DNA of 42,881 bases, from contig NC_057752.1 in NCBI RefSeq assembly GCF_004010195.1, positions 7,586,740 to 7,629,620 on the forward strand. The letters are read 5' to 3'. Shown piece after piece: positions 1 to 38,169 of the stretch. The stretch is from Chiloscyllium plagiosum (lineage: Eukaryota). How positions within the stretch are numbered: the first letter of the stretch is position 1; the number at the start of each line of letters is the position of its first letter. The notes beneath the pieces are model-generated. The model was given only the letters and a program-made list of their open reading frames with translations, ran no database searches and was not told the origin of the DNA. The translations under genes were made by a program, and so were the position numbers.

Positions 1-264
1 CCGTGACCAGGTGTATCTATGCTGCGCTCCGTCTGCAGGGGTGCTGAAGACGTCATGCAGCTTGGCATCTTTTACCATGTCCATCAGGGCTCTGGACATG
101 GCGTCCAGTTTACTGTCCCCCCCGCCAGATCGTCCTTCTGCATCAACTATACAGTTGAAGTCACCGGCCAGAATGACCAGCCTGGACGTAGCCAGCAACA
201 GTGGAAGCTGCTGCAGGACAGCCAACCGTTCACTCTTACCCACTGGGGCGTACACATTAATCAG
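1..264 (-). mobile_element. Tx1/L1-clade LINE ORF2 apurinic-like endonuclease fragment (runs off window start)
   Basis: Manual minus-strand translation gives LINVYAPVGKSERLAVLQQLPLLLATSRLVILAGDFNCIVD...LHDVF...RYTWSR, with the NVYAP and GDFN motifs of L1-type APE domains. Confidence 0.9.
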
Positions 265-577
265 TACACATCCACTGCTTCAAGCCCGCAGCACTCCAGC
301 AAAATCTTTTTCACAAACACCATCTGATCGACTGGTGTGTGCTCCTCCACCTTCTTCACAGTCACCCTGACTGTGTTGCGAATGCCCTGGCCAGGGCTGC
401 GGGCGGCTGCTGAGGCCATAGCTCTGAGGTTGGCTGGTACCTGAATTGGTGTTAGGCCGAAGCCAGCATAAAGATCCACCAAGAGCAGGTCAGCACAACC
501 AAACGATCCTCCAACATCCAATCACGATCCAGCAATGGTCTCTACTAGCTCTGATGACTCGCAACCCAATACCTGTC
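261..577 (-). mobile_element. Tx1-clade LINE 5' UTR and ORF1 N-terminus (ATG at 419-417), truncated by internal deletion
   Basis: ORF 261..521 contains MASAAARSPGQGIRNTVRVTVKKVEEHTPVDQMVFVKKILLECCGLEAVDVY, which resembles the Tx1 ORF1/ZCCHC3-like N-terminus (recalled). It directly abuts the APE fragment. Confidence 0.7.
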
Positions 578-621
578 CTGATAAGAACAGTCACTTGATC
601 TTAGCCAAAAGGCCAAGAAGC
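578..621 (-). pseudogene. U2 snRNA 5' fragment (nt 4-33 and 40-52)
   Basis: Minus strand reads GCTTCTTGGCCTTTTGGCTAAGATCAAGTG-A-CTGTTCTTATCAG versus vertebrate U2 GCTTCTCGGCCTTTTGGCTAAGATCAAGTG-TAGTAT-CTGTTCTTATCAG. Confidence 0.92.
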
Positions 622-660
622 AGGAGAATTGACGTTTCAGCAAAAGCACTTCATCAGGAA
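622..660 (-). ncRNA. Minimal hammerhead ribozyme motif (PLE-associated, stem II degenerate)
   Basis: Minus strand reads TTC-CTGATGA-AGTGCTTTTGCT-GAAAC-GTC-AATT. Confidence 0.6.
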
Positions 661-1175
661 TAGAGCTGTGAGCCAAGGGGGTGGAGAGATAAATGGGAGG
701 GGCTGGGGGGAGGATAGCTGAGAGTGCGATAGGAAATGGAGGTGAGGATGATAGGTCGGAGAGGATAGGCAGGAAGGATGATGGGCAGGTCATGAGGGCG
801 GTGCTGAGTTGGAAGGTTGGAATTAGGATAAGGTGGGGGGAGGGGAAATGGGGAAACTGGTGATATCCACATTGATCCTGTGGGGTTTGAGGGTCCCAAG
901 GCGGAAGATGAGGTGTTCTTCTTCCACGCGTCGGGTGGTTAGGGAGTAATTATTGAGGTGGCGCTGGACCTGATGGAGTGGAAGGGGGAGTTGAAGTGTT
1001 CGGCCACGGGGCGGTGGGGTTGGTGGGTGTGGGTGTCCCGGAGATGTTCTCTGAAGCGCTCTGCGAATCGGCGTCCTGTCTCCCCAATGTAGAGGAGACT
1101 ACATTGGGAGCAACGAATACAGTAAATGACATGTGCGGAAGTACAGATAAATCTCTGATGGATGTGGAAGGCTCC
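622..1175 (-). mobile_element. Penelope-like element 3' fragment (GIY-YIG tail and terminal repeat)
   Basis: Reverse complement is homologous to 17560-18150 (GACACCC..ACCAACC..ACCGCCC..GTGG.CGAACACTTCAAC; GGGACCCTC.AACCCCA). It ends in a CTGATGA..GAAACGTC motif. Confidence 0.88.
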
Positions 1176-1211
1176 CTGGCTGTGACTTGTTTGATAAATT
1201 TTTTTAAAAAA

Positions 1212-2545
1212 CCAGGAGTTTCAGAATCTGCTCAGTTTAGGGGACTGACTGTGCTGGCTGGGCCACAGTCAGTGTGTTGCTGCTGTAGGTTTCTGCTTTT
1301 TTGGGGGAAACCTGATTCCTGAACTGATTGAATTATTTAGCCAGTTTGTTAACTGGCATTCCTTTGGTGGGGACTGATTTCTGGGCTGCCTGATGCACAC
1401 GATGTGTTTCAGGTGTAACTCAGTTCTCGTTGGGGGACTGTTGTTTCACTGGCTGGTTACAGCCTGTGTGTTACTCTTTTCTCTCTTTGAGAAAAGGACT
1501 ATGTTGATTTTGAGGCAGGGCTTAGCCCTTGCACTCTGTTTATTTTTGTTTTTGTATATGTCTTCACTGTGTTTCGATGTTTGGACTGAGCCCTTGTGAG
1601 GACTGTTCCTGTGGGGAGGCCTAGCCCTGGGACTGGGCACCTGTGTGTGTGCTGGGAGGTGAGCACTTGCTGTGTCCTAGGGTTTGAGGGTTGGCCCTGC
1701 CTTCGGGGTTGGGCTAGGCCCCTGTGGATTGGCTGTGCCTTTACAATATACTGTGGGCCTGGTTTTCCAAGGATGGGCCAGGACTCTGTGGAGACTAAAC
1801 ACTTGTGTATGTGTTTGCTGCCCTCAGTTGTGGACTCCATTTTTTTGCAATGGGCTCTGCAGTTTGGAGTGGACCCCATTTCTGACAAGGCACTCTGTAT
1901 ACTGGAGCGGACTCTGATTCTGGGAATTGATTCTACATTTTGAAGAGAACTGTTTGTGATAATAGACTCTGGACCATTTGTTTATTGATAATTGACTCTG
2001 TCATGTAGTTTGTTGGGTTGATCACCTGCACTGTCTTGTGTCCCTGGGTCTGGTAGGCCTTAGTGTGAGCTGGGAGGCTCATCGGTCGTCCTGAAAACTG
2101 TCACCCTGAGATGAGAGCTGGAGGGTGGGTAGGCCACTCTGATGCCAATCGCCCTGAGAAGGGGTAATCGGGACGGGCTGTCCTAAAGGTGGTCGGAAGG
2201 CGTGTCAGGGCGGACGGGTCACGGGAAGGACCGAGAGCTGGAAGGGACGTAGGGGCGGGCTGCATTAGAGTGGCTGGAAGGTGGGAGTGGATTGCTGGGG
2301 GTCTGTATCGAATGCACTATTTTTTTAATGTAATTGGACTGTCTTTTATGTACAAATGTCATTGTTACTGTTTTGTAATGAATGAAAGCGGGATTTGAGA
2401 TTTGCCCTCATTTCCCTGTAAACTGGTTGAATGGTAGGGTTTGGGGTCTGTCTTTGCTCCTCTCCCTTGTAAAATTGCTGTTTCTCTGTATACAGCTGTT
2501 AATGTTAACTGTTTTGTAAACTACGTATCGTCTAATTAAAAAAAC
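1212..2545. repeat. Unclassified non-coding repeat, copy 1
   Basis: 1212-1930 aligns by eye with 2545-2700 plus 3176-3790 (CTCAGTTTAGGGGACTGA, TTTGGACTGAGCCCTT, GCAATGGGCTCTGCAGTTTGGAGTGGAC). The unit ends in an ATTAAA/A-run at about 2536-2544. Confidence 0.7.
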
Positions 2546-3790
2546 AGGATATTCAGAGTCTCCTCAGTTTAGGGGACTGACACTGTGCTGGCTGGGCCAC
2601 AGTCAGTGTTTTCCTGCTGCTGTTAGTTTCTGCTTTTTGGGGGTAAACCTGATTCCTGGTCTGGCTGAATTATATGGCCAGTTTGTTAACTGGTATTCCT
2701 TTTTTATTTTTTTTTAGGGAAAGACACAAAGTGCACGAATCTTTATTCAAATTCCACTGCCAGGAAGATAGGAAAACACCCGGGTGGCCAGTGACAAACA
2801 CTGCCCTTCACATCAAAGGGCAGTGCTGTGTGAACAAAACAGTGAAGGGGAGGGTAGGGACTAAATCAAAAATTTCCTGTTTATTTTATTTTTTTTTTTC
2901 CTTTTTTTTTCTCTTCGTTTTAACCCCCACACTACCACCTAAGTGCGGTAGTGCTTATTTTATCCCCAGAACCCATGGTGTGTGTGTGCAGGTGTGAGAC
3001 ACAGTGAAAGACAAAAAGTGCACAAATCTTTATGTTGGGCTGGGAGTCCGTGAACCACCGCAATCTGCGGTTGCAGGGGACTGCTGCGTGCAACACCTTC
3101 CACCCCAGATCCCCGAGAGAAAGGGGGAGGACTCCCGCGTAGAGAGCCCTCCACTGGGGGTATTCCTTTTTTATTGAGGACTGATTTTTTTTTTAAACTG
3201 CCTGTTCTACACAGTTAATGTCTTTCAGGTGTAATGGTTCTCATTAGGGAACCGTTGTTTCACTGACTGGTTACATCCTACATGTTACTCTTTCAGAAAA
3301 GAGTATGTTGATTTTGTGGTAGAGCTAAGCCCTTCCACTCTAGTTTTCTTTGTTTTTTTTTGTATGTGTCTTCACTGTTATTTGGTGTTTGGACTGAGCC
3401 CTTTTGAGAAAATACATCTTAACAGATGAGCCGTTCCTGTGGGAAGGCCTGGTCCTGGGATTAGGCCTCTGCAAAGACTGAACACCTCTGTGTGTGTGTG
3501 CGCGCACTCTAGGAGGTGAGCACTTGCTGCATCCTGGAGTTTGGGAGTGGACCAAACCCCTGTTAGTTAACTGCACCTTCACAATGTACTGTGTTCCTGT
3601 GAGATGGCCTGGTTCTTTGTGGATAAACCAGGCCTCTATGGAGACTGAACACCTGTGTGTGTGCTATGGGGTGTACATTTGCTGCCTTCAGGAGTGGACT
3701 CTGTTTTTAGCAATGGGCTCTGCAGTTTGGAGTGGACTCCATTTCTGACAAGGCATTTTGTATACTGAAGTGGGCTCTGTTCCTCGGGCC
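2545..3790. repeat. Unclassified non-coding repeat, copy 2 (interrupted by Tx1 insertion)
   Basis: Diverged direct copy of 1212-1930, split at 2709-3158. Confidence 0.7.
2709..3158 (-). mobile_element. Rearranged Tx1-clade LINE 3' insertion with 17-bp TSD
   Basis: TSD GGTATTCCTTTTTTATT at 2692-2708 and 3159-3175. 3158-3034 translates QWRALYAGVLPLSLGDLGWKVLHAAVPCNRRLRWFTDSQP (ORF2 C-terminal region). 2717-2872 and 2915-3033 match the Tx1 3' UTR at 35385-35630. Confidence 0.88.
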
Positions 3791-4295
3791 TTGCTGTCAT
3801 ATTCTGTTAAATGTCAATCTCCCCCCTGTTCTAGAGTTCAGCTCTTTTGTCTATGCTTGGACCAAGAATGTAATGAAGTTGAGTTGAGCTGGTGGAATCC
3901 AAACTGAGTGTCAGTGAGCAGGTTATTGTCGAGTAAGTGCCACTTGATAGCATTGTCAATGACCCTTTTCATCACTTTGATTTAAGAATAGACTAATGAG
4001 GTGGTAAATACCTGAGTTGGGTTTGTCCTGCATTTTGTAGATAGGACATACTGAGCAATTTTTCTGTTGATAGGTAGATCTTTCAGTGTTATAGCTGTAC
4101 AGTTTAAGGATATGGTTGATTCTGGAACAGAAGTCTTCAGGAATACTGTTGGAATGTTGCCAGGACACCTAGTTATTGCAGTATCCAGTGCTTTTAGCTG
4201 TTTAATGATGTGATGTGGAGTGAATTGAACTGGCTGAGTATTAGCAAGTTGGATGCTGGGGAGCTCAGGTCCTGGCACTTTTGGCTGAAGGTTAC
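3790..4295 (-). mobile_element. Decayed Jockey-group (CR1-like) LINE RT fragment
   Basis: PVQFTPHHIIKQLKALDTA..PGNIPTVFLKTSVPE and QDKPN motifs; homologous to 18960-19390. Confidence 0.8.
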
Positions 4296-9869: not shown

Positions 9870-10650
9870 GATGGATCACAGTAGGCATTTTAAAAGGATT
9901 GGTGCTGGGTCCTCTACTTTTTGTCATTTACATAAATGATTTGGATTCGAGCATAAGAGGTACAGTTAGTAAGTTTGCAGATGACACCAAAATTGGAGGT
10001 GTAGTGGACAGCGAAGAGGGTTACCTCAGATTACAACAGGATCTGGACCAGATGGGCCAATGGGCTGAGAAGTGGCAGATGGANNNNNNNNNNNNNNNNN
10101 NNNNNNNNNNNNNNNNNNNNNNNNNNNNNNNNNNNNNNNNNNNNNNNNNNNNNNNNNNNNNNNNNNNNNNNNNNNNNNNNNNNNNNNNNNNNNNNNNNNN
10201 NNNNNNNNNNNNNNNNNNNNNNNNNNNNNNNNNNNNNNNNNNNNNNNNNNNNNNNNNNNNNNNNNNNNNNNNNNNNNNNNNNNNNNNNNNNNNNNNNNNN
10301 NNNNNNNNNNNNNNNNNNNNNNNNNNNNNNNNNNNNNNNNNNNNNNNNNNNNNNNNNNNNNTAGAGGGCATAGGTTTAGGGTGAGAGGGGAAAGATATAA
10401 AAGAGACCTAAGGGGCAACTTTTTCACGCAGAGGGTGGTACGTGTATGGAATGAGCTGCCAGAGGAAGTGGTGGAGGCTGGTACAATTGCAAGGTTTAAG
10501 AGGCATTTGGATGGGTATATGAATAGGAAGGGTTTGGAGGAATATGGGCCGGGTGCTGGCAGGTGGGACTAAATTGGGTTGGGATATCTGGTCGGCGTGG
10601 ACGGGTTGGACCGAAGGGTCTGTTTCCATGCTGTACATCTCTATGACTGT
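9870..10650 (+). mobile_element. 5'-truncated CR1 LINE spanning the assembly gap
   Basis: [27 protein letters not shown] before the gap, RGHRFRVRGERYKRDLRGNFFTQRVV after it. Same 3' UTR as 7140-7420. Confidence 0.95.
10084..10361. other. Assembly gap (N run)
   Basis: Run of n characters. Confidence 1.
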
Positions 10651-15760: not shown

Positions 15761-18110
15761 GAGGCTAAGGGCCTCGGAGGTGGGGGGAAGGTAGCTGAGC
15801 GTGTGATAGGTGGATGGAAGTAATGGTGATAGGTCGGAGGGGAGGGTGGAGCAGATGGGTGGGAAGCAAGATGGGCAGGTCATGAGGGCGGTGCTGAGTC
15901 GAAAGGTTGCAACTAGGGTAAGATGGATGTGGAAGGCTCCTTTGGGGCCTTGGATGGAAGTAAGGGGGGAGGTGTGGGCACAGGTTTTGCAATTCCTGTG
16001 GCAGGGGAAGGTGCTGACAGGGGAGGGTGGGTAGTTGGGGGATGTGGACCTGACCAGGTAGTTGCGGAGGGAACGGTCTTTACAGAAAGCAGGTAGGAGT
16101 GGGGAGGGAAATATATCTCTGGTGGTGGGGTCCGTTTGTAGGTGGTGGGAATAACATAGGATGTATATGATGCTTAAGTGTCCAGGCGCCAACTTGAAGA
16201 CACCTCCACCTACCGCCCCCTCGACCACTACCTCATCTCCTACCACCAAGCCATCATCTCCCAGACCGTACACAACCTCCTCACCTCAGGGGATCTCCCA
16301 CCCACAGCTTCCAACCTCATAGTTCGGGAACCCTGCACTGCCCGGTTCTACCTCCAACCCAAGGTCCGCAAGCCTGACCACCCTTGCCGACCCATTGTCT
16401 CAGCCTGCTCCTGCCCCACTGAACTCACCTCCACATACTGTCCTATCCCCCCGGTCCAGGAACTCCCCACATACATTCGGGACACCACCCATGTTCTCCA
16501 CCACCTCCAAGACTTTTGTTTCCCTGGCACCCAGTGTCTCATGTTCACCATGGACAGCCAGTCCCTATACACCTCCATCCACTCTGACCAGGGCCTCCAA
16601 GCCCTCTGTTTCTTCCTCTCCCGATATGCCCACCAGTACCCTTCCACTGACACTCTCATTCGTTTGGATGAACTGGTCCTCGCCCTCAATAATTTCTCCT
16701 TTGAATCCTCCCACTTTCTCCAGATGAAAGGGGTAGCCATGGGCCCCAGCTATGCCTGTCTCTTCGTCAGCTATGTAGAACAGTCCATCTTCTGTAGTTA
16801 CACTGGCACCAGTCTCCACCCTTTCCTCTGCTACATTGATGACTGCATCAGCACCACCTCGTGCTCTCACAAGGAGGTTGAACAGTTCATGAACTTCACC
16901 AACACATTCCACCCTGCCTTAAATTCACCTGGATTATCTCAGGTAGCTCCCTCCTCTTCCTGGACACCTCCATCTCCATCAATGGTGACCAATTCAACAT
17001 TGACATCTTCTACAAAGCCACCGACTCCCATAGCTACCTGGATTACGCCTCCTCCCACCCTGCCTCCTGTAAAAATGCTATCCCTTATTCTCAATTCCTC
17101 TGCCTCCACCACATCAGCTCCCAGGAGGACCTGTTCCACCCCAGAACACACCAGATGCCCTCCTTTTTTTTAAGTATCGCAATTTCCTCTCCCACATGGT
17201 GGTTGATCCCTCCAGTGCATCTCATCCACTTTCCGCGCCTCTGCCCTCAAACTCCACCCCTCCAACCGCAACAAGGACAGAACGTCCCTAGTCCTCACCT
17301 TCCACCCCACCAACCTCCGTGTACATCGCATCATCCTTGGCCATTTCTGCCACCTACAAACGGACCCCACCATCAGAGATATATTTCCCTCCCCACTCCT
17401 ATCTGCTTTCCATAAAGACATTTCCTCCACGACTGCCTCGTCAGGCCTAACCCCCCTCCCCCCAACAACCCATCTCCACTCCTAAAATCTTCCCCTGCCA
17501 CCGCAGGAATTGCAAAACCTGCGCCCTCACCTCTGTCCAAGGTCTCAAAGGAGCCTTCCACATCCATCAAAGTTTCACCTGCACTTCCACACATGTCATT
17601 TATTGCATCCGTTGCTCTCGATGCGGTCTCCTCTACGCTACGTTGTGGAGTTAGGATGCCTACTGGTAGAGCACTTCAGAGAACATCTCCGGGACACCCG
17701 CACCAACCAACCCCACCGCCCTGTGGTCGAACACTTCAACTTCCCCTTCCACTCCACCAAGGACATGCAGGTCCTGGGCCTCCATTGCCACTCCCTTACC
17801 ACCCGATGCCTGGAGGAAGCATGCCTCACCTTCTGCTTTGGGACCCTCCAACCCCATGGCATCAATGTGGATTTTACCAGTTTCCTCATTTCTCCACCCC
17901 CCCCAATTTATCCCAGTTCCACCCTTACAGCTCAGTCCCGCACTCATGACTTGTCCTACCTGTCCATCTTCCTTCCCACTTATCCACTCCACCCTCCTCT
18001 CTGACCGATCACCATTACCCCCACCTCCATTCACCTATTGCAGTGTCAGCTACCTTCCCCACAGCCCCACCCCCTCCCATTTATTTCTCCACCTCGAGGC
18101 TCCCAGCCCA

Positions 18111-18150
18111 TTCCTGATGAAGGGCCTTTGCCCGAAGCGTCGATTTTCCT
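18111..18150 (+). ncRNA. Hammerhead ribozyme motif with core mutation (GAAA to GAAG)
   Basis: TTC-CTGATGA-AGGGC CTTT GCCC-GAAGC-GTC-GATT. Confidence 0.65.
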
Positions 18151-18571
18151 GTCCCTCGGATGCTGCCTGACCTGCTGTGGGCTTTTCCAGCACCACACTC
18201 TGGACTCTAATCTCCAGCATCTGCAGTCCTCTCTTTCGCCTAACAGGCTTTGGGGAGTCAGGAAATGCGTTACTCGCCGCAATATTCCTAGCCGCTGACT
18301 TTTTCTTATAGCCATTGTGTTTATGTGGTGAATCCGGTTGAGTTTCTGGTCAGTGATCACCCCCAGGATTGCTAGTCAGGGATTCAGTGATGCTAATACC
18401 ATTGAGTGTCAAGGGGCAGGGATTAGATTGTCTTTTATTGGTGATGGTCATAGCCTGGCATTTGCGTGGCGTGAATGTTACTTGCCACTTGTTAGCCCAA
18501 GCCTGGATATTGTCCAGATCTTGCTGCATTTGGACACTGACTGCTTCACTATCTGAGGAGTCACAAATGGT

Positions 18572-35381: not shown

Positions 35382-37434
35382 TTTTGTTTTAATCTCTCCC
35401 TTGCACTACCACCTAACTGCAGTAGTGCTTATTTTTCCCCAGCACCCATGTTGTGGTTGTGCAGGTGTGAGACGCAGTGAAGAACAACAAGTGCGTAAAT
35501 CTTTCTTTATAATCTAGCGCCAGGAAGAAAGGGAACACCAGTGTGGCCAGTGACGAGCAGTGCCCATCTCATCAAAGGGCAATGCTGTGTGATCAAAAAT
35601 GTGAAGGGGAGGCCAGGGATTAAATTAAGAGTTGGAGGGGGAAACACACACTCCACTCCCCGTGGTGCCCACCTCTCCCTGAACAGCTCAAGGGTGCTGA
35701 TAGATACCGTGTACTCCTTCTTTAGGGACCCTTGGGCTTGAACGTAACCGCGGAAGAGGGGCAGGCACTTGGCCATAACGACACCCTCCAATGCCCGCTG
35801 CCTGAACCTGGTTATGGCCAGTTTGGCCAGGCCCAGGAGCAGACCCACGAAGACATCTTCTGACCTGCCCTCTCCCCTCTGTACCGGGTGCACAAAGATC
35901 AGGAGCATGAGACTGAGCATCCTCCAACTGATGCTATATGTCAGGTCCAAGCACCGCCATTTTAAGGCATCGAACAGCACAGGCCACGAACAGGACATCT
36001 GCCCTGCTCATTTTATCCTGCGGCAGCATCCAGCCCAGCCCCCCTGCCACCCAGCATCTCCCCGACCCCGGTCACCGTTACCGCCACGGCCCTCCCCTCC
36101 AACAGCCACTCGAACCCGCGAGTACGGAGGTGTGCTTTCCTGAGCAATGGCTCCCTGATGACAGCCGCTACTCCTGTCTGAGGGTAGGCACAATGCGATT
36201 CGGCCATGTTCCAGACAGCGATCAGGTCCTGGTAAAAGGCAGCATGCTGAGACCAACCTCCAAACAATCGCATTCAATAAACAGGAGCTGTGTGCCATAG
36301 TTGAGGCGACGCACCTGGCGGAAAAAGTACGTCACCAGGGCGCACCATCTAGGAGGAGGCTTAAAGTAAAGGTATCGCTGCAAGGTCTGAAGACGTAAAG
36401 TCGCTACCTGGGTGCGAACGCACCCCAGTGACTGACCGCCCTCCTCAATAGGGAGACTCAGGACGTGCATCAGCAACCCAGTGCATCCTTTTGGCCCAGA
36501 AGAAGTGAACCAGCATTCTCCGGATGTCAGCGACAAACCCAGGAGGAGGGACCAGAGGGACCAGCCAGTACCACAGCATGGCAGCCACCTGCTGGTTTAT
36601 GACCAACACTTGACTCCTGTAAGGCAGAACTCTGAGCAGTCCTGTCCAGCGGCCTAGGCGAGGCAAGACCTTGGCTTCTAGCTCCTGCCAGAATTCCTCA
36701 GCCGGGCTGAGGTAGATCCCCAAATAGAGGAGATGGGTGGTACTCCAGCTGAATCCCCGTAACTCCTCTGGTAGAGAGTCCACCCTCCACGGACTGACCA
36801 GTCATCCAGAACATTTGGCCCAGTTGATCCTGGCGGAAGACGCTGCCAAGTACACGGCCTGGCACTCACGGATCCTCCCCAAGTCAGCCAGGTCGGTGAA
36901 AGTAAGGAGCACATCATCTGTGTAAGCTGAGAGGACCACCCCCGTGCCCGCACCGCCCAGAACCAGCCCCGACAACCTCCTCCGCAAGAGGCACAGGAAC
37001 GGCTCCATGCACAAAGAATACAGCTGGCCTTGACGTACACCTCTCCCAAAATGAAGGGGCGCCATCGGGGACCTATTAACTTTAACCAGGCACTCTGCGG
37101 TGTACAAAAGTTGGATCTGGGCGACGAACTGTGTCCTGAGCCTGAATGGCTGCAGAGTCCCGAGTAGATACTCATGAATCGGCCCCATTGAATGCCGCCT
37201 TCTCATTGAGTCAGGGAGGCGTTCAGCAGACTAGCCCATTGACCGGTGGATCAGGTCCCAGACCAGATGGACGTTGTCATGTACCCTCCGGCCTGGGACC
37301 GTGTAGGACTAGTCTGGGTGAATCATGTGGGCCAGCACAGATGCCAGGTGAGAAGCCAACACCCTGGCGAAAATTCTGGAATCCGTGCCAAGGAGGGAGA
37401 CCGGATGCCAGTTCTTTAGTGAACGAAGGTCCCT
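35382..37434 (-). mobile_element. 5'-truncated Tx1-clade LINE (RT, C-terminus, 3' UTR) with TSD
   Basis: FGRGVRQG..LYSLCMEPFL..SAYTDDVL..ASSARINWAKC; YLGIYL; LSLPIEEGGQSL; LLLGLAKLAI..FRERWAPRGV. TTTAGGTTTGTA repeated at 35370-35381 and 37435-37446. Confidence 0.93.
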
Positions 37435-38169
37435 TTTAGGTTTGTAAGAAGTACTGAATAAATTGTTGTTGGATCAGGGGACACCGAGCTATTGGGGTTA
37501 AGAATTACTACAAAAAAGGGTGGTTTGTCGAGTGTGGACGAGATTGAGCCATAATTGTTTGCCCAAATGAACAGTGTTGCTACCAGGCTTGACATGAACC
37601 ACGTGAGGTGAATAGCAAACCTCAGCTATTTTGAATCTTCCCTCTTCCCAACTGAATTGAAAGGAAACACAATTCAAAATGCTATACATTAGAAAATTGA
37701 ATAACATGGCTTGTAGATCACAATCAATGTAGTTTGTAACAACCATTGATCATTTTCTAGCCTGTAATTTCAAGACATACCACAACCATTCAAGCTAATT
37801 TAAAGTGTTAAATAATAAAGAGCAAATGGTTTAAGATCCCTTGAGTGACATTTTGTAGAATGGAATCCTGATAAATCCATTTGGTTTGCCAAGTACCGCG
37901 ATTATTATTAGAGTTGGAAGTAAGAATGGCTCTTTAATGGGACTGATGGAAAATTCTTCGTGATGTTACAAATGATCTTCAGCATGAAACTAATTTGAAA
38001 ACTTCCATGCATTACTGAGTATCTCAGAACCATTAACTCTGTCCAGTTCCTGTTCAATTTTTGCTCCTTCTGATTAATCTACTGACCAACAGACTAATTG
38101 GAGTTGGTTACAAAAGCTGTAACATGATAGAAGTCACAATTGAAAGGGTGGCTGAAAATCCACTGAAAT

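Follow-up and report, generated by a model that had tools for sequence, protein, structure and literature searches.

A U2 snRNA-headed, internally deleted Tx1-clade LINE beside a Penelope-like repeat in the shark Chiloscyllium plagiosum

In the present study, a stretch of 42,881 nucleotides from Chiloscyllium plagiosum (NC_057752.1, positions 7,586,740 to 7,629,620; referred to as the window, and numbered from its first base) was analysed. At its left end, the 5' part of a Tx1-clade LINE carrying a fragment of U2 small nuclear RNA as its head abuts a Penelope-like element. The following features were observed at this locus.

1..264, minus strand: middle of the ORF2 AP endonuclease, leaving the window at the left (aa 113-200 of P0003)
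264..419, minus strand: first 52 codons of a Tx1-type ORF1, then a stop (shark protein matches; PF23057)
420..577, minus strand: 5' UTR of 158 nt, not U2-like (no match to U2 nt 53-192; folding z = 0.48)
578..590, minus strand: U2 3' block, U2 nt 40-52 (13/13 against the intact U2 gene L007:72-263)
591..591, minus strand: lone base substituting U2 nt 34-39 (alignment to L007:72-263)
592..621, minus strand: U2 5' block, U2 nt 4-33 (29/30 against L007:72-263)
613..621, minus strand: microhomology at the junction, between U2 nt 4-12 and the tail of the Penelope-like element (8/9 in 3 of 5 intact tails)
622..1175, minus strand: 3' part of a Penelope-like element, minus its last few tens of bases (75.7% to 17550-18151, plus four shorter copies)

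An intact animal U2 gene (L007:72-263, 190 bits) was used as the U2 reference. When this reference was compared with the window using blastn, the U2 piece was recovered at E 4.6e-11, the remaining three U2 matches in the 42.9 kb had E values of at least 0.94, no further part of U2 was found, and U2 nt 53-192 were absent from the window. A 23-base core of the piece has a single occurrence in the window, and 0 of 100 shuffles contain it. The Rfam U2 model (RF00004) matched 624-425 on the minus strand with 35.8 bits and E 4.7e-5, and good alignment was confined to the first ~50 positions. With a gathering score of 46 for this family and with nt 53-192 absent, identity as a U2 snRNA gene was rejected; no family reached its gathering score in an Rfam scan of the whole window. 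The original prediction had read 621-578 as U2 nt 4-33 plus nt 40-52, with a single base in place of nt 34-39, running into a 5' UTR and the ATG of a Tx1 ORF1, and each of these observations is borne out by the alignments. The gap at nt 34-39 falls in the region that pairs with the branch point and covers the site (nt 38/39) nicked by the U2-targeting elements Keno and Utopia.

Behind the head, the U2 piece and ORF1 (ATG at 419) lie on the same strand with the 158-nt 5' UTR between them. The fold of this UTR is unremarkable: 136 of 200 shuffles fold equally well, no ribozyme fold was found, and a structured or ribozyme-like 5' UTR was rejected at a z of 0.48. The 52 residues of ORF1 share 54% identity with the horn-shark copy P0030 and 60% over 43 aa with the whale-shark copy P0002, and match PF23057 (ZCCHC3 RNA-binding domain) at E 0.0018; the ORF1 protein search gave 0 of 11 candidates. 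The endonuclease piece is 70-80% identical to P0001-P0003 and matches PF03372 at E 0.0091. Both Pfam scores are under the cut-off because the ORF1 and endonuclease pieces are short. The nearest named relatives come from carpet and horn sharks, with 91% over 44 aa to a Chiloscyllium punctatum model, and the PDB yielded only distant relatives, L1 ORF2p and R2. Four bacterial endonucleases at 25-37%, from a scan of prokaryote genomes, were rejected as unrelated, and scans of viral contigs revealed no related loci.

The two coding pieces are joined by an internal deletion at 264, where codon 52 of ORF1 has been fused to mid-endonuclease sequence (aa 113). The deleted part comprises the remainder of ORF1 plus residues 1-112 of ORF2, amounting to ~1 kb or more as estimated from P0028, and includes the invariant Asn14 and Glu43 columns of the endonuclease alignment. 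Because these columns are deleted, the copy is considered dead. A 6-base repeat at 269 and 255 was tried as the microhomology behind this deletion and was rejected as out of register. In the original prediction, the U2 head, the UTR and the ORF1 start were described correctly, but the deletion at 264 went unmentioned. Judged from its sequence, the U2-headed copy is a dead, internally deleted Tx1-clade LINE.

Several other repeats were observed in the window. At 35404-37467 on the minus strand lies a Tx1-clade copy that is frameshifted and truncated at its 5' end, and that retains a piece of RT (PF00078, E 2.4e-7). This copy is unlikely to be the 3' half of the U2-headed family (34% to P0033 versus 27-31% to Keno-like ORF2s), and its sequence probably represents a different family. 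Rearranged 3'-end pieces of this second Tx1 family, 79-87% identical to 35404-35628, lie at 2692-3175 on the minus strand inside another repeat; on either side of them stands a 17-bp direct repeat, rich in A (at 3175 and 2708). The segments 1204-1924, 2536-2702 and 3218-3787 belong to two copies of one repeat, 67-87% alike, with no match among the stored proteins. A 278-base assembly gap (N) at 10084-10361 lies in a decayed LINE piece.

Upstream of the head, Penelope-like DNA directly abuts U2 nt 4, and neither a U2 promoter nor U2 nt 1-3 are present; no PSE-like site was found nearer than 606 bp upstream, allowing up to five mismatches to a PSE consensus. It had been predicted that a Penelope repeat, instead of an snRNA promoter, stands upstream and that this Tx1/Keno-like element lies outside a U2 locus. 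The former agrees with the 75.7% identity to 17550-18151 and with the lack of a PSE-like match within 600 bp, and the latter is supported by the lack of a U2 gene in the window and by the endonuclease and ORF1 matches. At 657-631, the flank contains a minimal-hammerhead-like core (recognised by its motif, with no Rfam match), and the predicted cut sits 9 nt ahead of the U2 head in the studied copy. At least six Penelope-like ends with such a core were observed, at 657-631, ~15.7 kb, 18.1 kb, 20.1 kb, 38.9 kb and 42.7 kb among them, and an unrelated repeat starts at 1204, beyond the far end of the Penelope piece.

The junction itself is informative. The AGC proposed to be shared by U2 and the Penelope repeat is indeed the exact overlap of three bases, but the likeness in fact extends to eight of nine bases, and U2 nt 4-12 are matched to this degree in three of the five intact Penelope tails at the same offset, 9 nt past the hammerhead-like cut. 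An 8/9 likeness was reached in only 9-19 of 1000 shuffles, with a window background of 12 in 85,172 positions. The likeness is in register, and therefore the junction is considered to have been guided by microhomology. This favours the annealing of a U2-headed cDNA to its target, and a later DNA deletion fits as well; that the remaining two of the five tails reach only 6/9 counts against arrival with the U2 head. In R2, cDNA ends are annealed or joined by microhomology to the upstream target (PMC11331408). The Penelope tail was also compared with the Keno target (U2 nt 39-52) and was rejected as its mimic, with 178-700 of 1000 shuffles as good across all five copies. The tail is no more like the target than shuffles are, and therefore U2-like targeting of the site is unsupported.

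Two rival histories concern this junction. First, a Keno element might have been inserted on target in a U2 gene or an orphan U2, and a later microhomology-mediated deletion might have removed the promoter and nt 1-3. The 9-base likeness suits end-joining equally, an on-target insertion with a 14-bp duplication would leave U2 sequence through nt 52 on its 5' side, and the large deletion at 264 in the same copy shows that a later DNA deletion could also explain the 5' junction, which weighs against retrotransposition with the head. However, neither a U2 gene nor a further U2 piece was found in the window, PSE-like matches nearer than 606 bp are lacking, and close relatives are found inside unrelated host gene models, so that we regard this history as unlikely. 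Second, and less probably still, the Penelope-like element might have been the newcomer, inserted into the U2 head and primed via the 9-base likeness near the 3' end of its RNA. The Penelope piece does end exactly at the likeness and on the same strand, yet neither a duplicate of U2 nt 1-12 nor a PSE-like site was observed near 1175.

The comparison with known systems begins with Keno, a U2-specific Tx1-clade LINE (PMC4640811, PMC4494074, PMC6136364). The 3' flanks of Keno and Utopia begin at U2 nt 39 (PMC4640811, PMC6136364), and reptile Utopia generates a 20 bp duplication (PMC4640811). Given flanks that begin at nt 39, the gap in the shark head would fall on the nick and nt 39-52 would correspond to a target-duplication length; the duplication around the other Tx1 piece of the window (2692-3175) measures 17 bp. 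The shark copy resembles Keno in being a Tx1-clade LINE with an ORF1 and an AP-type endonuclease, in the co-oriented U2 5' sequence that immediately precedes it, and in the break of its head at the Keno site. In contrast to Keno, which is inserted in the U2 gene with the promoter and U2 nt 1-38 upstream, the shark copy has Penelope-like DNA up to nt 4, without a U2 promoter or nt 1-3; its relatives also appear scattered, and it falls outside the teleost core described below.

The relationship to Keno was further examined in an endonuclease tree of 81 rows, gathered by their likeness to the query family, with a query of 88 aa. Thirteen near-duplicates and rows under 185 aa coverage were left out, and three shark fragments, the query and L007 were added by hand. 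The 88-aa piece groups with whale- and horn-shark copies (support 96/88), and amphibian elements form the sister group of the shark copies within a clade of 14 rows (100/99). This clade lies inside a clade of 58 of the 81 rows (99/93) that also holds Fugu BAD04856, and the outgroup is not monophyletic. We infer that BAD04856 is Fugu Keno, since its accession falls in order with those of Tetraodon BAD04858 and of Keno_Tn (AB111948). In AU tests of groups named after the first tree, with this single Keno reference of inferred name, the union of the shark, amphibian and wider Fugu elements was not rejected (p 0.31, 30-row tree), whereas the union of the shark elements with the three-row teleost core around BAD04856 was rejected (p 0.00046), as was a control union (p 0.0011). 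The endonuclease falls within the broad clade that includes the probable Fugu Keno, outside the teleost core. On these alignments, the element is Keno-like and may be a relative of Keno, close to its teleost core, more than a Keno in the strict sense.

The closest architectural counterparts are crocodilian. Kojima 2015 (PMC4494074) describes a Tx1-Mar group that clusters with Keno and inserts into other transposons. It also describes elements outside snRNA genes that carry a U2 head (Tx1-11_Crp) or U1 heads (Tx1-2_Crp, Tx1-2B_Crp and Tx1-4_AMi). A dispersed, U2-headed Tx1 architecture is therefore already known from crocodilians (PMC4494074). The shark copy likewise has a U2 5' end joined to a UTR and ORF1 outside an snRNA gene, and is a Keno-related Tx1 LINE with an snRNA-derived 5' head located within another transposon. 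It differs in its shark host and its Penelope-like tail, where the crocodilian type lands in Mariner-N4 or an LTR element. The shark head, for its part, lacks U2 nt 34-39. As to a preference for transposon targets, there is one insertion, beside the Penelope-like tail, and no named Tx1-Mar sequence appeared among the returned protein matches.

SINEU elements offer a second comparison. SINEU-1, -2 and -3 also have U2-derived heads, and the first U2 block of SINEU-3 likewise ends at ~nt 32 (PMC4494074), but in the shark copy ORF1 and ORF2 remnants are kept and the element is longer than the 621 bases in the window, which makes it a LINE remnant. With coding remnants at 419-1, identity as a SINEU (under ~500 bp, non-coding, with a poly(A) tail) was rejected. 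The SINEU precedent invoked in the original prediction holds in that snRNA-headed SINEs are in print, but the same paper also contains U1- and U2-headed Tx1 LINEs (PMC4494074), which are nearer. R2 with its 28S rRNA leader offers a model of the mechanism: its RNA begins with target sequence transcribed along with the element, through which the end of the cDNA can anneal to upstream DNA (PMC11331408). It differs in clade, endonuclease and target, and no ribozyme fold was found in the shark 5' UTR. No snRNA-headed Tx1 LINE from a shark or chondrichthyan emerged from the literature search, Repbase lying outside its scope, and no shark is named in the Utopia supplements. Novelty is confined to the shark hosts, to the gap that covers the nick site and to the junction at a microhomology.

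Whether the head is particular to this insertion or a family trait was addressed through its relatives. Residues 5-14 of the whale-shark model P0001 agree at 10/10 positions with translated U2 nt 5-34, and this peptide occurs in one of 198 stored proteins (P0001), with a chance of about 1e-4. P0001 is also the best match of the endonuclease piece (80%) and its nearest neighbour in the tree. In this gene model the peptide is probably spliced to the endonuclease, and its occurrence ahead of the same endonuclease hints that the family as a whole may carry the head. The residue that follows it in P0001 differs from the translation of intact U2, a hint of a lesion in this region of U2 as well. The peptide was present in one of the 27 close relatives, which counts weakly against a U2-headed family; UTRs are rarely translated.

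The relatives also suggest dispersal. In total, 27 of 190 matches reached an identity of 57% or more across 40 aa or more, and the 12 of these that were looked up comprised seven whale-shark models, one bamboo shark, two horn-shark and two unnamed entries. The two horn-shark relatives are fused to protocadherin and ABCC5 gene models, and these Heterodontus francisci models (P0028, ABCC5-like; P0030, protocadherin) have absorbed ORF1 and endonuclease pieces; the fusions are probably mis-annotated intronic copies. Relatives in at least seven whale-shark models and in two horn-shark host gene models suggest, at the level of sequence matches, that the family is dispersed.

Sequencing runs and metagenomes were also consulted. 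Part of window 1-700 is carried by 20 of 24 sequencing rows and half of its words by none; 14 of the 24 rows (3 organisms, 6 studies) carry 0.33-0.41 of its words, and no RNA runs were among the rows listed with window 1-700. Metagenomes were scanned with a U2-head pattern that allows the gap to vary, and at least 122 loci were recovered, of ~340 stretches estimated. The 6-base spacer was intact in all 126 metagenome U2 matches among those listed, and LINE ORFs stood near U2 in one of the 122 loci listed (L007), behind a complete U2 gene. This contig (OFEP01001224.1) carries a complete animal U2 gene at 72-263 and L1/Tx1-type ORF1- and ORF2-like frames at 770-4124. At ~483-515, ~220 nt past the U2 gene, it bears a stretch that by eye resembles the U1 5' end, with no Rfam match, and the LINE may have landed in the U1 gene of a cluster of U1 and U2 genes.

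These observations bear on a further rival, in which the head arose in this insertion alone as a one-off chimera, through a jump of the RT from the LINE RNA to U2 snRNA or to a U2 retro-fragment. U6/L1 chimeras and the repeated addition of SINEU heads are parallels for such an event. Recurrent template-switch additions of U1 and U2 pieces have been reported in crocodilians (PMC4494074), and the two-block head could represent nt 4-33 added to an element that started at nt 40-52. However, in a second shark species this endonuclease is preceded by sequence from the U2 5' end, the intact 5' UTR and ATG place the head at the true 5' end of a copy that is not 5'-truncated, and a random switch leaves the break at the Keno nick site unexplained. 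A one-off chimera is therefore judged improbable.

Herein, we propose that the dead copy likely arrived with the U2 head on its cDNA into the Penelope-like repeat, and that it belongs to a dispersed, U2-headed, Keno-related shark family. Retrotransposition of this copy with its U2 head, as originally predicted, is supported as the most likely history by the junction microhomology, the whale-shark peptide and the end of the head at nt 52. The position of the sole U2 match in 42.9 kb, on the strand of ORF1 and 158 nt away, also counts in its favour. First, a Keno-related founder would have inserted at U2 nt 38/39, duplicating ~nt 39-52 and leaving U2 1-52 as a leader; a head ending at nt 52 would be the 5' flank expected of such an on-target founder with a duplication of ~14 bp. 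Second, transcripts reading through from the U2 gene of the founder, or at a later stage from adjacent DNA, would have yielded U2-headed RNA. Third, the family would have relaxed its targeting and scattered. Fourth, the cDNA 3' end would here have paired with the 9-mer of the Penelope tail that resembles U2, with U2 nt 1-3 clipped. Fifth, in what is the weakest step, the gap at nt 34-39 would likely be a repair scar of the element's own endonuclease; a head with this gap would resist re-cutting and could not pair with the branch point.

By itself, a single dead copy is ordinary repeat debris. If the family is confirmed, snRNA-headed Tx1 LINEs would extend from crocodilians to cartilaginous fishes, and many dated copies would inform the origin and transcription of the head, questions left open by Kojima 2015 (PMC4494074). 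The gap at the nick site, if common to the family, would be a tidy case of self-immunity. It is possible, though doubtful, that this is an old, dispersed, Keno-derived shark family in which the U2 5' end has been fixed as a leader and the branch-point-pairing bases at the element's own nick site have been lost family-wide. If so, the leader would be immune to self-insertion and inert in splicing, and would still give transcription from the U2 promoter at master loci and direct the joining of 5' ends to microhomologies that resemble U2. The family would then represent a transition caught between strict U2 targeting and a free-roaming snRNA-headed element.
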